Shown: piece by piece, positions 18,110 to 49,226 of the stretch
How positions within the stretch are numbered: position 1 is the stretch's first letter
Layout of the letters: each line of letters begins with the position of its first letter
From: Bacilli bacterium
GTDB taxonomy: Bacteria; Bacillota_I; Bacilli_A; RF39; UBA660
Reading direction: 5' to 3'
Assembly (NCBI GenBank): GCA_045627525.1
Contig: JAZQNW010000011.1
Span: forward strand, 4,549-68,548
DNA: 64,000 bases
Notes under the pieces: generated by a model
Told to the model about the DNA's origin: nothing
What the model saw: only the letters and a program-made list of their open reading frames with translations
Database searches by the model: none
Translations under genes and position numbers: made by a program

Positions 18110-18152
18110 ATCTTGTAAAATGATTTTATTTATGATATATTTCTATATAAAG

Positions 18153-18360
18153 CAAGTGCGAAAGACGTAATATTAATTAATTTGTAGAGAGCTTGTGGAT
18201 GGTGAAAACAAGTATGAAATTAATATTAAGATCACTTTCAAGTTGTGATTTATGGATAAGATAAATACGGTAACGCGTTATAGTTATAAGTGTATAAGTT
18301 TTCTTATAAATTAAGGTGGTACCGCGAACTATTCGTCCTTATAGGCGAGTAGTTTTTTTT
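18153..18360 (+). promoter_or_regulatory. T-box riboswitch (Ile) with canonical terminator
   Basis: AGAGA bulge and GGTG loop, specifier ATC at 18231-18233, T-box AAGGTGGTACCGCG 18313-18326, terminator ACTATTCGTC/GGCGAGTAGT plus T-tract. Confidence 0.93.
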
Positions 18361-18380
18361 GTTTAAGAAAAGGAGGGAAT

Positions 18381-19331
18381 ATGTTTTTAAATATAATTTT
18401 ATTAATAGTAGGATTTGTAATATTAATAAAAGGTGCTGATTGGTTTGTTGATGGAGCTTCAAATGTTGCGATTAATTTTAATTTATCTAAAATGTTGATT
18501 GGTTTAACAATTGTTTCATTTGGTACATCGGCTCCTGAATTAGCCGTTAGTATTAAGGCATTAATTTCTGGCAATGGTGATATAGTTTTAGGCAATGTTA
18601 TTGGTAGTAATGTATTGAATATATTATTAATATTAGGAGTTGCTTCAATGGTTCATCCATTGACAGTAAAAAATAATACAGTAAAAAAAGAATTACCAAT
18701 TACGGTATTAATTACAACATTATTTGCAGTACTTTTATCAGATAATATATTTGATAAAGGTGTTATTAATTCATTTACTAGAAGTGATGGAGTGATATTA
18801 ATATTATTTTTCTTAATATTTATTTATTATTTAATTACGTTGATGCGTAATAAAGTAGAGGATGATAATAATTCTGAAAAGATGCCAATGATAAAAGCTA
18901 TCGGTTTTACATTACTTGGTTTATTAGGAATTGTTCTTGGAAGTAACTTTGTTGTTGATTCAGCAAGTTATTTAGCAAAGGCAATAGGCGTTAGTGAAAG
19001 AATGATAGGTTTAACTATTGTTGCTTTAGGAACTTCGTTACCAGAATTAGTTACATCTGTTGTTGCTACACGTAAAGGAGAATATGATATAGCTATAGGT
19101 AATGTTGTAGGAAGTAATATATTTAATATAGGTATTGTTGTTGGTATTCCTGTTGCAATATTAGGCGGTATTAAGTCTATTACGTTTAGTTATATTGATT
19201 TAGTTGTTATGGTTATAGCAGCTGGATTATTATATATATTTTCCCGTAATGATTATAAGATAAGTAAAAAAGAGGGAATTACGTTTTTAATTTTATTTGT
19301 TATATATTATAGTTATGTTATTTTAGGTTAG
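18381..19331 (+). CDS. Calcium/sodium antiporter (CaCA, YrbG-like)
   Basis: Two alpha repeats GTSAPELAVS/GTSLPELVTS and GNVIGSN/GNVVGSN. Confidence 0.93.
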   Translation: MFLNIILLIVGFVILIKGADWFVDGASNVAINFNLSKMLIGLTIVSFGTSAPELAVSIKALISGNGDIVLGNVIGSNVLNILLILGVASMVHPLTVKNNTVKKELPITVLITTLFAVLLSDNIFDKGVINSFTRSDGVILILFFLIFIYYLITLMRNKVEDDNNSEKMPMIKAIGFTLLGLLGIVLGSNFVVDSASYLAKAIGVSERMIGLTIVALGTSLPELVTSVVATRKGEYDIAIGNVVGSNIFNIGIVVGIPVAILGGIKSITFSYIDLVVMVIAAGLLYIFSRNDYKISKKEGITFLILFVIYYSYVILG

Positions 19332-36399: not shown

Positions 36400-37140
36400 A
36401 TGAAAATAGAAAATTTTGAAGGATTAGTATTAAGTGAAACTAATTATAGTGAATCAAGTAAAATTTTAAATGTTTTTACTAAGGAATATGGTCTTATTGG
36501 AATTATGTCTAAAGGTTGTCGTGGTGTAAAAAGTAAACTACGAGGTGTTAGCAGGAAACTCATTTATGGTAAATTTCATGTCTATTATAAGGAAAATGGT
36601 TTATCTACTTTAATTAGTGTTGATTTGATTAATTCTTATTCCAATACGTTAATGGATTTAGAAAGAGTTAGTTATGCTTCTTTTTTGATTGATTTAGTTC
36701 TTCAAGTGGTAAGACAAAATGCTAATTCCGAGATTTTTGATTTAATAATTAGTACCTTAGATAAAATAGATACTGGTCTTAGTCCTATTGCGTTATCAAA
36801 TATTTTAGAATTAAAATTACTAGATTATTTAGGAGTTAAACCCTGTATAGATTGTTGCAGTAAATGTGGAAGCGATAAAGCAATTGTTACTTTATCTAGT
36901 GATAGTGGCGGATACGTTTGTAAGAATTGTTATCAAAATGAGGGACTAGTTAGTGATAAAACAATAAAAATGATTAGAATGTATTATTATGTTGATATAA
37001 AAAATATTACTAAATTAGATGTTTCTTCAGAGGTTACAAAGGAAATAAATATGTTTTTAGATGATTATTATGAAAGATATACTGGACTATATTTAAAAAG
37101 TAAAAATTTTATTAAGAAAATTCAAAAATTATCTTCATAA
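36400..37140 (+). CDS. recO: DNA repair protein RecO
   Basis: NYSESSKIL..FTKEYG, C4 zinc finger CSKC/CKNC. Confidence 0.94.
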   Translation: MKIENFEGLVLSETNYSESSKILNVFTKEYGLIGIMSKGCRGVKSKLRGVSRKLIYGKFHVYYKENGLSTLISVDLINSYSNTLMDLERVSYASFLIDLVLQVVRQNANSEIFDLIISTLDKIDTGLSPIALSNILELKLLDYLGVKPCIDCCSKCGSDKAIVTLSSDSGGYVCKNCYQNEGLVSDKTIKMIRMYYYVDIKNITKLDVSSEVTKEINMFLDDYYERYTGLYLKSKNFIKKIQKLSS

Positions 37141-37153
37141 TATTATTTATGAC

Positions 37154-37181
37154 TTGACATAAAAATAATTAAAAGTATAAT
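37154..37181 (+). promoter_or_regulatory. Sigma-A promoter of glyQS leader
   Basis: TTGACA(37154-37159)-16 nt-TATAAT(37176-37181). Confidence 0.7.
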
Positions 37182-37189
37182 AATACTTA

Positions 37190-37318
37190 TATGTGTGATG
37201 ACTGAGGCGGAAACTCACGAGCAGTATAAAACAAAGATGATTCTTCTAGAATAAATAAGGTGGAACCGCGCAATAATATTTCGTCCTTACATATTCTAGA
37301 ATTTTTTTATTATAAGGA
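37190..37318 (+). promoter_or_regulatory. Atypical short T-box riboswitch (Gly)
   Basis: T-box AAGGTGGAACCGCG 37257-37270 with TTCGTCCTT partner; mini stem TGAG-GCGGAAA-CTCA containing Gly codons; upstream of glyQS. Confidence 0.8.
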
Positions 37319-44402: not shown

Positions 44403-44933
44403 ATGAATAATGTTAAGAATACTTTTGACAAAGGAGTTTTTGGTGAACTTAGAGCTTTATGTAATGACAGTAAAGCTAGTGATATTATTAAAAAATGGAA
44501 AGAAGAAAAAGTACTTACAAGTTTGGAATATCAAGAATTATTAAATTATATATATGAAGATGCCAATAAAAAAGCGACTACCTTTTCAACTTTTGATTTA
44601 AATAATAAATCTAAAAATAGAGAAGTTTCAAAAATGTCAAATTTAATTATTGATAATTATCAAAGGGTTTGTGAAGGGGTAAATATAACAAGACAAAATA
44701 TGACTTATCATAATATTACTATATTGGTTGATCAAATTAGTCAATCTGATAAATATTTTAGCTGTTTTATAAATTTTTGTGCTTTATTGAAGTTAAGGTT
44801 AGATGAAAAAAGCTTTATACCTGATATTATGACTATGAATTATTGCAGAAATCAAATTGAATGTGCTAGTAAACAATATAAGTCATTTCTTAGGAATGGA
44901 AAAAGGCATCATCTAGTAAAAAAAACAGTTTAA
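44403..44933 (+). CDS. Hypothetical protein
   Basis: 176 aa ORF with GAGGGG RBS; no family recognised. Confidence 0.65.
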   Translation: MNNVKNTFDKGVFGELRALCNDSKASDIIKKWKEEKVLTSLEYQELLNYIYEDANKKATTFSTFDLNNKSKNREVSKMSNLIIDNYQRVCEGVNITRQNMTYHNITILVDQISQSDKYFSCFINFCALLKLRLDEKSFIPDIMTMNYCRNQIECASKQYKSFLRNGKRHHLVKKTV

Positions 44934-44964
44934 TATTTTTAATTTTTATGTTATAATACCGTTA

Positions 44965-45174
44965 TCGATGTTGATTAAGGAGTAGTAGTAATTGATGCTT
45001 CTAAAGAGAGCTTGTGGTTGGTGCAAACAAGTGAAGATAAATTATGAATTCGCCTTAGGAGTTCTTATTAATAGTAAGCGTAGCTCGCGTTAAGAGTTTT
45101 AAGTGTATAGTAATAACTATAAAATAAGGTGGTACCGCGAATATTCGTCCTTATATTTATAGTTATTTTTTTTT
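44965..45174 (+). promoter_or_regulatory. T-box riboswitch (Phe)
   Basis: AGAGAG/GGTG stem I motifs, specifier TTC 45049-45051, T-box AAGGTGGTACCGCG 45126-45139. Confidence 0.92.
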
Positions 45175-45186
45175 AAGGTGGTGACT

Positions 45187-45813
45187 ATGGATAAATTTAT
45201 TTTTGATTTAGATGGAACTTTATTAAATGCGGATTTTTCATTTGAAATTGATTATTTTGCTTCTGTTTTAGATAAAGGTGTTGCTAAAGAATTTGATTTA
45301 ATTAGATTTCCATTATTAACTGAATATGAGAACAGTCATTATAAATATGATATTATGGAACTCAGTGAATTTTTTTATTCAAAATCTGGAATTAATATTA
45401 CACCTTTAATGATTAAGGAATGGATTAGAAGAGGTGCTAATTGTTCTGATACTATTATTGATGGTGTAGAAGAGGTTTTAAAATATTTAAAATCTAAAAA
45501 TAAAAAAATAGTATTATTAACTAATTGGTTTAGTGAATGCCAATTATCTAGATTAAAAAGAGCTGGTATTTATGATTATTTTGATGAATTTTATTGTGGA
45601 GATAGTTGTTTAAAACCAAATTTAGATAGTTATAAATTAGCTTGTGGTAATACGCCATATGATAGATGTGTAATCATAGGTGATACATTTAAAAACGATG
45701 TTTTGGCTCCTAGTGAATTAGGAATAACTGCAATATATTTTTGTCCTAATGGTGATGGTATAGAGTTTGAAAATAAGATAGATAAATTAATTAAAATAAA
45801 GGAGATGTTTTAA
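45187..45813 (+). CDS. HAD-IA family hydrolase
   Basis: FDLDGTL, LLTN, LKP, IIGDTFKNDV motifs. Confidence 0.9.
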   Translation: MDKFIFDLDGTLLNADFSFEIDYFASVLDKGVAKEFDLIRFPLLTEYENSHYKYDIMELSEFFYSKSGINITPLMIKEWIRRGANCSDTIIDGVEEVLKYLKSKNKKIVLLTNWFSECQLSRLKRAGIYDYFDEFYCGDSCLKPNLDSYKLACGNTPYDRCVIIGDTFKNDVLAPSELGITAIYFCPNGDGIEFENKIDKLIKIKEMF

Positions 45814-46851
45814 GTGAAGTTAGAAGATGTAAAAGAATTATTAGAAAATGATTTGAAAAAGAATTATACAATTAATGAATTAAATGATTTAAAAGTAAAA
45901 TATTTAGGAAAAAAGGGATTGATTACAGAATTAAATCAAGAAATAAAAAATATTCCAAATGAGAGAAAAAAAGAATTTGGTCAAAAAGTTAATGAACTTA
46001 GAAATGACTTTAATCTTTTTTATGACTCTGCTAAAAAGAAAATGGAAGCTGATATTTTAAATGAAAAATTGAGTAAAGAAGCTATTGATATTAGTTTACC
46101 TTCTATAAAAATTAATAATGGTGCTCCTAATATTTTGGAAAAAGTAATAGAAGAGGTAGAAGAAATCTTTATGTCTATGGGCTTTGATGTTGTAGACGGG
46201 CCTGAAGTAGAAGAAGATAAATTTAATTTTGAAATGTTAAATATTCCTAAAGGTCATCCAGCTAGAGATGCACAAGATACTTTTTACATTGAAGGTGAAG
46301 AAACTTTGCTTCGTAGTCAAACTTCTCCTGTTCAAGTTAGAACAATGTTAGATGGAAATGGCGTTTCACCTATTAGAATGATTTGCCCTGGTAAGACATA
46401 TCGTCGTGATGATGATGATGCTACTCATTCACATCAGTTTATGCAAATTGAAGGATTACTTATTGATAAAGAGGTTAGCCTTTCAGATTTAAAAGGAATA
46501 ATTGATATATTAGTTAAAAAATTATTTGGTGAAAAAGTTCAAACTCGTTTTAGACCAAGTTATTATCAGTTTACAGAGCCTTCTGTTGAAATAGATATAA
46601 GCTGTTTTAATTGTCATGGAGATGGTTGCTCATTATGTAAGCATACAGGATGGATTACAATAGCTGGAGCTGGAATTGTTCATCCTAATGTTCTTAGAAT
46701 GAGTGGATATGATCCTAATATTTGGAGTGGATTTGCTTTTGGATTTGGTGCTGAAAGAGTAGCAATGTTGAAATATGATATTAATGATATTAGAGTATTT
46801 TATAATACAGATTTAAGAGAAAATAGAGTATTTGATAGGAGGGATGATTAA
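45814..46851 (+). CDS. pheS: Phenylalanine--tRNA ligase alpha subunit
   Basis: HPARDAQDTFY, LLRSQTS, ATHSHQFMQIEG, FAFGFGAER. Confidence 0.97.
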   Translation: MKLEDVKELLENDLKKNYTINELNDLKVKYLGKKGLITELNQEIKNIPNERKKEFGQKVNELRNDFNLFYDSAKKKMEADILNEKLSKEAIDISLPSIKINNGAPNILEKVIEEVEEIFMSMGFDVVDGPEVEEDKFNFEMLNIPKGHPARDAQDTFYIEGEETLLRSQTSPVQVRTMLDGNGVSPIRMICPGKTYRRDDDDATHSHQFMQIEGLLIDKEVSLSDLKGIIDILVKKLFGEKVQTRFRPSYYQFTEPSVEIDISCFNCHGDGCSLCKHTGWITIAGAGIVHPNVLRMSGYDPNIWSGFAFGFGAERVAMLKYDINDIRVFYNTDLRENRVFDRRDD

Positions 46852-46853
46852 TT

Positions 46854-49226
46854 ATGATTAGTTTAGAATGGGTTAAAGATTATATTGATATTGATGATCA
46901 AGATTTAAAAGATTTGGCTGTTAAGATTACACAAGCAGGAATTAATGTTGAAAAAGTAATTTCTAATCATATTGATAATCTAGTTATTGGAAAAGTTGTT
47001 GAATGCAGTAATCATCCTGATAGTGATCATTTACATGTTTGTCAAGTTGATATAGGACAAGAAGATTCGCTACAAATTGTTTGTGGTGCTTCTAATGTTC
47101 GTAATGGAATAAAAGTAATAGTTGCATTACCGGGTGCTATTTTGCCAGGAAATTTCGAAATAAAGAAAAGTAAAATTAGAGGTGTTGACTCTAATGGTAT
47201 GATTTGTGCTTTATTTGAAATAGGTTTAGAAGAAAAAAATGATGATACTTATGCTAAAGGAATTTGTGAACTTGATGATGATGCACCAGTAGGTGATGAT
47301 CCATTTAGTTATTTAAAAATGGATGATACATTATATGAATTAGATATACATAAGCATCGTAATAATGACTGCTATTATCATATAGGATTTGCTTATGAAA
47401 TTGCAGCTATATTAAATAGAAAAGTAACTTTACCAGATGCTATATATAAAGAAGATTCAGATGATGTAAATAATCATTTTGACTTGGATGTAGAAACAGA
47501 AAAATGTCCTTATTATTTAGCTAAAATGGTTAAAAATGTAAAAATAGGGGAATCACCTGAATTTATTAAAAGACGTCTTATTGCAGCAGGAATGAGACCA
47601 ATAAATAATGTTGTAGATATTTCTAATTATGTAATGCTTGAATATGGACAACCTCTTCATTTCTTTGATAAGGATAAGCTAGGTAGTTATGTTTTAGTTA
47701 GAGATGCTAAAGATGGTGAAGAAATAGTTACACTTGATGGTAAAAAAAGGACTTTAAAACACAGTGATATTGTTATTACTAATGGTGATGAAGTTGTTTG
47801 TGTTGCTGGTGTTATGGGTGGAGAAAATACAGAAGTCACTGAAGAAACTCATAATATTTTAATTGAAAGTGCTATTTTTGATTCTGTAAGTATTAGATAT
47901 ACAGCAAGTAATTTGGATTTAAGAAGTGAAGCATCTATTAGATATGGTAAGGGTTTAAATTATGAATATACAAAAAAAGCCATTGATAGGGCTTGTAGTT
48001 TATTAGAAAAGTACGCCTCAGCAACAGTACTTAGTGGAACTGTTTGCCATGATAAGATTGATAAATCACCTAAAATAGTTGAATTTTATCCAACTGATGT
48101 TGATAAAATTTTAGGTATTACAATTAGTGAAGAAGATATGAAAGTTGAATTAGGTCGATTGGATTTTCCATATGAGTTGAATGATGGTAAATTTAAAGTT
48201 ACAATTCCAAGAAGAAGACTAGATATTGATCCTAATGTTAATGATATAGCAGAAGAAATAGGGCGTTTATATGGATATCAAAATTTAATTTCCACAGTTC
48301 CTGTTACTCCAATTAGAAGGGGTCAATATGTTGGAGCTGTTAAATATCGTAAACTTATTTCTAGGAGACTTAGAAGTTTAGGCCTTAATGAGTCAAAAAC
48401 ATATACTTTAACATCACCAGCTATGGCTCAAACATTTGATTATGATCAAAAGGATAAAATAATTTTACCTAATCCAATGAGCATTGATAAAAGTGTAGTT
48501 AGAACTAGTATTATTCCATCTTTGTTAAATGTTTATGAATATAATAAAGCTCGTAAAGTAAAAGATGTATTGTTATATGAAGTTAGTAATACTTATGATA
48601 AATATTATAATGAATATCCAAAAGTAGCAGGTTTACTTTCTGGTAATTATTTATCTAGTGATTGGACTAAGCCTGTAAAAGTAGATTTTTATTTAGTTAA
48701 AGGAATTGTTGAAAATTTACTTAATTATATGGGATTTGAGTCTAGATATAGTTTTGAAGTTGGTAATATTGCTGATTTACATCCAGGCATTAGTGCTAAT
48801 ATTTTAATTGATAAAAAAGTTGTAGGTATTATTGGAAAAGTTCATCCTAATATTTCTAAAGATGATATTTATGTATTTGAACTAGATATTAATAGTTTAA
48901 TGATTAATACAAGGACATTAAAATACAAAGAAGCACCTAAATTCCCAGGAATGGAAAAAGATATGGCTTTTGTTGTTGATAAAAGTGTAGAAGCTGGTAA
49001 TATTATTTCTACTATTCATCGTACTGCTGGTAAAATTGTTGATAATATATCTGTTTTTGATGTATATACCGGTGATAATGTTGGCGAAAATGAAAAGTCT
49101 TTAGCTTTTAAGTTACATTTTTCTGATCCTACTAGAACATTAACCGATGAAGAAGTTATGAAAGTGTTTAATAAAGTTATTGAACAAGTAGAAAATGTTC
49201 ATAAAGCAAAATTAAGAGATAAATAA
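46854..49226 (+). CDS. pheT: Phenylalanine--tRNA ligase beta subunit
   Basis: tRNA-binding HPDSDHL/IVCGA, PINNVVDISNY, GQPLHFFD, C-terminal FDX-ACB KSLAF. Confidence 0.97.
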   Translation: MISLEWVKDYIDIDDQDLKDLAVKITQAGINVEKVISNHIDNLVIGKVVECSNHPDSDHLHVCQVDIGQEDSLQIVCGASNVRNGIKVIVALPGAILPGNFEIKKSKIRGVDSNGMICALFEIGLEEKNDDTYAKGICELDDDAPVGDDPFSYLKMDDTLYELDIHKHRNNDCYYHIGFAYEIAAILNRKVTLPDAIYKEDSDDVNNHFDLDVETEKCPYYLAKMVKNVKIGESPEFIKRRLIAAGMRPINNVVDISNYVMLEYGQPLHFFDKDKLGSYVLVRDAKDGEEIVTLDGKKRTLKHSDIVITNGDEVVCVAGVMGGENTEVTEETHNILIESAIFDSVSIRYTASNLDLRSEASIRYGKGLNYEYTKKAIDRACSLLEKYASATVLSGTVCHDKIDKSPKIVEFYPTDVDKILGITISEEDMKVELGRLDFPYELNDGKFKVTIPRRRLDIDPNVNDIAEEIGRLYGYQNLISTVPVTPIRRGQYVGAVKYRKLISRRLRSLGLNESKTYTLTSPAMAQTFDYDQKDKIILPNPMSIDKSVVRTSIIPSLLNVYEYNKARKVKDVLLYEVSNTYDKYYNEYPKVAGLLSGNYLSSDWTKPVKVDFYLVKGIVENLLNYMGFESRYSFEVGNIADLHPGISANILIDKKVVGIIGKVHPNISKDDIYVFELDINSLMINTRTLKYKEAPKFPGMEKDMAFVVDKSVEAGNIISTIHRTAGKIVDNISVFDVYTGDNVGENEKSLAFKLHFSDPTRTLTDEEVMKVFNKVIEQVENVHKAKLRDK

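Follow-up and report, generated by a model that had tools for sequence, protein, structure and literature searches.

A tRNA-Phe T-box leader with a probably rewired expression platform, in which a candidate nested terminator is opposed to Stem III

Among RNA-sensing riboswitches, T-boxes are the best understood, and they serve as targets for antibiotics. Until 2019, Stem III of their leaders was treated as belonging to a variable linker. In the canonical class I arrangement, the terminator borrows the 3' strands of the antiterminator helices A1 and A2 as its 5' strand, and neither helix survives the switch to OFF (PMC7583486). According to the accepted model, the aminoacyl group of charged tRNA shears A1 and thereby gives way to the terminator, while uncharged tRNA stacks on A1 and stabilizes it (PMC7583486). 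Stem III and its purine string, which dock on the tRNA-bulge heteroduplex only, are indispensable for binding of the tRNA 3' end, and an antiterminator deprived of Stem III hardly binds tRNA (PMC7583486). In TBDB, terminators are predicted with RNALfold and their topology receives no comment. Throughout the T-box literature searched, of which the comparative surveys of 2008 and 2009 form no part, only the canonical exchange was encountered and no description of the nested wiring considered below was found.

Here, the leader of a phenylalanyl-tRNA synthetase operon was analyzed in the window, that is, the whole stretch of 64,000 nucleotides under study, belonging to a genome of 1.15 Mb with 26% G+C. 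Judging from sequence comparison, it is quite likely that this leader is a tRNA-Phe T-box with a rewired expression platform, in which a nested terminator competes with Stem III. The elements of the leader and of the operon are as follows.

44930-44957, + strand: promoter-like site TTAATA-16-TATAAT with a TG-extended -10 (10 of 12 matches, consensus scan only)
44962-45155, + strand: T-box leader, comprising Stem I (AG bulge, distal loop), Stem II, Stem IIA/B (CGUUA F-box), Stem III and the antiterminator
45049-45051, + strand: specifier codon UUC (Phe) in the cmscan alignment, with GAA (45046-45048) before it and the purine G45052 after it
45101-45123, + strand: AAGUG-Stem III-AA, the purine flanks around Stem III (RRRxG/AA motif as defined in PMC7583486)
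45112-45129, + strand: 5' strand of the putative nested terminator, AATAACTATAAAATAAGG, made up of Stem III loop, Stem III 3' strand, AA-containing linker and A1 5' strand
45126-45152, + strand: antiterminator, with A1 formed by AAGG (45126-45129) and CCUU (45149-45152)
45130-45136, + strand: T-box bulge UGGUACC, 7 nt, flanked by A1 and A2
within 45137-45148, + strand: A2, GCGA/UCGU, with the basal wobble G45137-U45148
45149-45167, + strand: 3' strand of the putative nested terminator, CCTTATATTTATAGTTATT, made up of the A1 3' strand and 15 downstream bases, with A45155 bulged
45166-45174, + strand: U9 run flush with the terminator stem (2 nt overlap)
45175-45189, + strand: Shine-Dalgarno sequence AAGGUGG (45175-45181) and ATG (45187-45189) of the first gene
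45187-45813, + strand: gene of a HAD-family hydrolase, first of the operon (PF13419, E 7e-15)
45814-46851, + strand: pheS (tRNA-synt_2d, 1e-95)
46854-49226, + strand: pheT (B3_4, tRNA_synthFbeta, FDX-ACB)

The region 44962-45155 is matched by Rfam RF00230 over the full model (1-219) with 127.7 bits against a cut-off of 93 (E 5e-28), and on the strength of sequence it is a genuine tRNA-Phe-type T-box upstream of the phenylalanyl-tRNA synthetase operon. A tRNA-Phe with the anticodon GAA and the 3' end ...GCC-A-CCA is encoded in the genome; it matches the UUC specifier, and its discriminator base A73 is complementary to U45133 in the UGGUACC bulge. The promoter-like site at 44930-44957 would place the start of the transcript just 5' of the leader. 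In all but its wiring, the leader is a full-length textbook T-box. The HAD gene lies between leader and pheS here and in many relatives, while in others pheS directly follows the leader (loci L017 and L018 were among those compared); as the gene is absent from some relatives, expression of the HAD protein would be tied to uncharged tRNA-Phe in part of the genus only. In one congener (L019/L059), a spacer of ~150 nt, in which no ORF was found, separates the nested Phe terminator from pheS.

The preliminary description of this DNA had proposed an 18-bp pairing with one bulge between 45112-45129 and 45149-45167, and exactly that helix is returned by RNAfold as the MFE structure. It has a free energy of -16.9 kcal/mol (z = -2.4 versus dinucleotide shuffles) and contains 18 pairs, by which the A2 hairpin and the 7-nt UGGUACC bulge are enclosed; A1, bulge and A2 are thus not dismantled in this fold. 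The alternative Stem III that had been described, TATAGT-AATA-ACTATA at 45106-45121, was confirmed at -3.2 kcal/mol, and Stem III together with the antiterminator amounts to -6.9 kcal/mol, compared with -16.9 kcal/mol for the nested (OFF) fold. The run of nine T placed after the helix is present at 45166-45174, but the stem extends over its first two positions, so that 7 unpaired U follow. A helix ending at 45167 and a U9 run at 45166-45174 represent the feature by which class I intrinsic terminators are recognized. Only one G-C pair is held by the 12 pairs proximal to the U-run, and the efficiency of termination is therefore uncertain.

A canonical terminator was sought 3' of A2 and none was observed, in agreement with the earlier reading: the stretch that begins with A2 and leads up to the U-run yields no more than the A2 hairpin (-1.8 kcal/mol), and the Phe leader contains no downstream complement to UUCGUCCUUA. 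Since this segment forms no hairpin beyond A2, a canonical terminator, the 5' strand of which would consist of the A1/A2 3' strands, is absent by sequence. A simple terminator scan of the window returned nothing at the Phe leader; its loop and G-C criteria exclude a nested hairpin, so that the blank result is not evidence against one.

From these elements, we infer a terminating hairpin, its prevention by tRNA-Phe and a coupling of the two through Stem III acting as a latch. A1, A2 and the UGGUACC bulge would be present in the ON and OFF states alike. In the ON state, Stem III would stay folded, the ACCA end of uncharged tRNA-Phe would pair with UGGU of the bulge, and the AA-containing flanks of Stem III would dock on the minor groove of tRNA, bulge and A2. 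Such docking would stabilize the weak Stem III (-3.2 kcal/mol) and would also hide the single-stranded AA linker, a potential toehold contiguous with A1. With Stem III docked, RNA polymerase would clear the U-run before the downstream strand could invade. In the presence of charged tRNA, or of none, the latch would fail; the downstream strand would then zip from the pre-formed A1 and branch-migrate through Stem III. In the resulting OFF state, the strand 45153-45167 would extend A1 outwards by pairing with 45112-45125, which covers the AA linker, the Stem III 3' strand and part of the loop. With four further pairs gained in the Stem III loop, the hairpin would become flush with the U-run and transcription would stop, the hairpin that ends at the U9 run serving as an intrinsic terminator. 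Since A1 would be retained in the OFF state, unlike in the A1-shearing model, coupling through Stem III is an extrapolation from that model.

The pairing was compared among related leaders. In a MAFFT alignment of 24 leaders, the nested helix was paired to 88.9%, versus ~50% when the partners were slid, with compensatory changes at 10 pairs, and none of 500 shuffles reached the observed values. When 86 leaders were aligned under the guidance of a CM, the proportion of paired cells reached 97.1%, as opposed to 36-54% with partners slid, a figure that is partly circular because these leaders had been preselected as nested and fitted to the model; compensatory changes occur here at 15 of the 18 pairs of the nested helix, and again 0 of 500 shuffles attained the observed values. 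Less biased supports are the 24-leader MAFFT alignment, a set of leaders selected by PheS (described below) and a test of cognate against non-cognate strands. For the latter, 57 non-redundant leaders were used: cognate strands bind with -10.1 ± 2.4 kcal/mol compared with -4.3 ± 2.6 kcal/mol for non-cognate ones, and in 54% of cases the cognate partner strand is the best binder among the 57. Of 69 non-redundant nested leaders, 62 possess Stem III, whose stability averages -2.9 kcal/mol; of the flanks in these 69, AAGUG or GAGUG is found in 43 and AA in 51. Furthermore, RNAalifold applied to the MAFFT alignment recovered Stem III and A1/A2, with compensatory changes in Stem III.

As both Stem III and the nested helix covary, two mutually exclusive helices are both conserved and under selection. 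In the alignments, the Stem III 3' strand is the element shared by the two alternative helices, and it covaries jointly with its Stem III 5' partner and with the post-antiterminator strand; such three-way covariation is the signature of a two-state switch. The preliminary description had argued for selection on the pairing and had suggested testing across the clade whether the Stem III 3' strand covaries with the strand that follows the antiterminator. The first is borne out by compensatory changes, cognate-strand binding and recurrence in other leaders; the second gave a positive result, and Stem III itself covaries too.

Two further T-boxes located in the window allow a comparison within the same genome.

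37185-37312 / 37140-37291, + strand: Gly T-box leader with nested wiring, in which 37244-37260 pairs with 37285-37301, followed by T7 at 37302-37308
18147-18360, + strand: Ile T-box with a canonical terminator, serving as internal contrast (Rfam part 18147-18343; 18326-18337 pairs with 18344-18355, then a U-run)

In the Gly leader, TTCTAGAATAAATAAGG (37244-37260) pairs with CCTTACATATTCTAGAA (37285-37301), and the T7 run follows; it shares the pairing logic of the Phe leader, as had been proposed, while its Stem III sequence is unrelated to that of Phe. The canonical pairing of the Ile leader, 18326-18337 with 18344-18355 and a U-run, likewise stands as a contrast. The gene following the Ile-specifier T-box (window 18147-18400) encodes a membrane protein similar to Ca2+/Na+ antiporters (MFLNIILLIVGFVILIKGADWFVDGA...), and the same order of Ile T-box and antiporter-like gene is also observed in sister genomes (L198, L214, L215). 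The Gly T-box scores just 33.9 bits in Rfam, where the cut-off is 93, and several other leaders of the genome, at 50.9-88.6 bits, fall below it as well; such scores imply that standard annotation under-counts the T-boxes of this lineage.

The T-boxes of the genome consist of 13 Rfam matches and the Gly leader. By fold, nested wiring is present in the Phe, Met, Gly and Ala leaders, whose Stem III sequences differ; seven further leaders of the genome are canonical, and a third wiring characterizes the His, Ser and Pro leaders. In this third wiring, the A1 5' strand and the T-box bulge together supply the 5' strand of the terminator, leaving the A2 hairpin and the 3' strand of A1 in the loop. It was observed at L010 (1501-1669 +100 nt), L012, L013, L228 and L096; in one example, AAGGAUGGUACC pairs over 12 bp with GGUAUCAUCCUU, and a U-run comes next. 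As the 5' strand here includes the T-box bulge, the terminator strand would compete directly with the CCA end of the tRNA. The third wiring accounts for 8 of 67 pheS leaders and for 11 of 60 T-boxes of six sister genomes.

A BLAST search with the leader in 60 relatives yielded many leaders that combine the nested helix with different Stem III sequences, preceding pheS, metS, leuS, ileS, hisS, valS and genes for membrane proteins. Among 67 pheS-linked T-boxes of related uncultured Bacilli, which were picked by PheS protein similarity alone and are therefore unbiased for terminator type, the nested wiring prevails with 49, followed by 10 canonical leaders and 8 of the third type. In six sister genomes, the 60 Rfam-detected T-boxes divide into ~35 canonical, ~15 nested (about a quarter) and ~11 of the third type; classification was by MFE folds, by which at least one metS leader (L192) was misfiled. 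Scores of the covariance model R1 are 95 bits for Phe and 79 bits for Met, compared with at most 56 bits for canonical leaders, and just 45 bits for the nested Gly leader, on account of which leaders were classed by fold and not by score. A covariance model of the nested platform, applied to genomes of the same class only, detected sporadic examples, confirmed by their folds, in a further six families of that class, upstream of valS, leuS, tyrS, alaS and one uncharacterised ORF (family f29). One nested leuS leader resides in a complete genome of 3.2 Mb and has a G+C-rich stem base. Overall, nested leaders represent nine or more amino-acid classes (Phe, Met, Gly, Ala, Leu, Ile, His, Val, Tyr) and seven or more families, and a U5-U10 run lies flush with the helix in every nested leader.

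On the PheS tree (L044-L123), the three wirings are clustered but interconverting, with ~10 changes, at least three of which are forced by well-supported branches; within the 34-leaf PheS clade that contains the window, 33 of the 34 leaders are nested. Orthologous Phe leaders with nested, canonical and T-box-strand terminators represent natural matched sets for studying the evolution of expression platforms. The chances are about even that nested-terminator T-boxes constitute a distinct and widespread third expression platform, in which A1, bulge and A2 are constitutive and the read-out proceeds only via docking of Stem III and the purine string. If so, shearing of A1, the deciding event in the current model, would not be required for T-box switching. 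Should the wiring work as proposed, the purine latch of Stem III alone could carry the regulatory decision, and full-length natural leaders would provide a clean system for the energetic contribution of that latch. In addition, annotation tools that seek terminators only 3' of the antiterminator will mis-annotate nested leaders.

Other explanations of the long helix were weighed against these data. In a genome of 26% G+C, where the single sequence reaches a z of just -2.4, AT-rich complementarity might arise by chance or as a functionless by-product of a duplicated Stem III strand; to this reading hardly any probability can be assigned, since 10-15 of the 18 pairs carry compensatory changes, the wiring recurs in nine or more amino-acid classes and seven or more families, and cognate strands outbind non-cognate ones, so that chance pairing is excluded by the comparison of sequences. 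A conserved helix whose main role lies elsewhere is harder to dismiss, though still unlikely: it could be a leaky constitutive attenuator, or an element for RNase III or transcript stability, with the T-box part working otherwise or being vestigial. The helix comprises ~22 stacked pairs including A1, which is near the length required by RNase III, and RNase III cuts the long T-box terminator in the S. aureus met leader (PMC7913692); moreover, the AU-rich base of the stem may terminate weakly. Yet the elements that contact tRNA are all strongly conserved, and a structural or RNase III role leaves the flush U-run and the covarying, competing Stem III unexplained. Orthologous Phe leaders, furthermore, swap the nested helix for canonical T-box terminators, implying the same function. 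An RNase III or structural role is conceivable as an add-on to regulated termination.

A translational switch comparable with the actinobacterial class II leaders, in which the Shine-Dalgarno/start region is captured by the 3' strand of A1 or by that of the terminator and tRNA gates the access of ribosomes, was also considered and appears very improbable. At this locus, 45154-45167 can indeed pair with 45179-45192 (14 pairs including G-U, -10.6 kcal/mol), and CCUUA is complementary to UAAGG of the Shine-Dalgarno sequence. Across 49 orthologous nested leaders, however, pairing with the start region is at the level of shuffled sequences (mean z -0.05; 2 of 49 below -2), and the distance from the U-run to the start codon varies from 18 to 150 nt. 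A sequestrator, moreover, has no need of the U-run that is flush in every nested leader. The pairing of 45154-45167 with 45179-45192 is thus probably fortuitous, being without conservation in orthologues. Of the two mechanisms put forward in the preliminary description, competition between Stem III and an extended terminator is upheld by covariation, while occlusion of the Shine-Dalgarno sequence through CCTTA/TAAGG found no support in the conservation of those 49 leaders.

With regulated termination through a nested hairpin retained as the preferred reading, the Phe leader can be placed among the known T-boxes. It resembles class I leaders such as B. subtilis tyrS and glyQS in Stem I with specifier and elbow-binding motifs, Stem II, Stem IIA/B, the RRRxG/AA motif of Stem III, the A1-UGGNACC-A2 arrangement with its G-U wobble, the U-run terminator and the aminoacyl-tRNA synthetase operon downstream. 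Unlike class I, it would keep A1/A2; the terminator 5' strand is predicted to be the Stem III 3' strand with the linker, and Stem III is what would be exchanged. With class II of Actinobacteria (Mycobacterium/Nocardia ileS) it has in common the discriminator core, a two-state logic and the recruitment of a discriminator-adjacent strand into the alternative helix. Class II leaders, by contrast, sequester the Shine-Dalgarno sequence, have no U-run and often possess a short Stem I, while the Phe leader carries a U9 run. The defining combination of that class, a conserved helix sequestering the Shine-Dalgarno/start region and no U-run, does not describe the Phe leader, since a U-run is always present in the nested leaders and the pairing in question is not conserved among orthologues. 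The stem Sa of S. aureus glyS and the 23-bp terminator of the met leader are likewise cases of lineage-specific remodelling of the 3' domain with long helices (PMC9177973, PMC7913692). Those S. aureus leaders keep the canonical exchange, the T-box sequence being the ON-state partner of the 5' strand of the terminator, whereas the Phe leader differs in topology, its candidate terminator being built around the antiterminator and opposed to Stem III.
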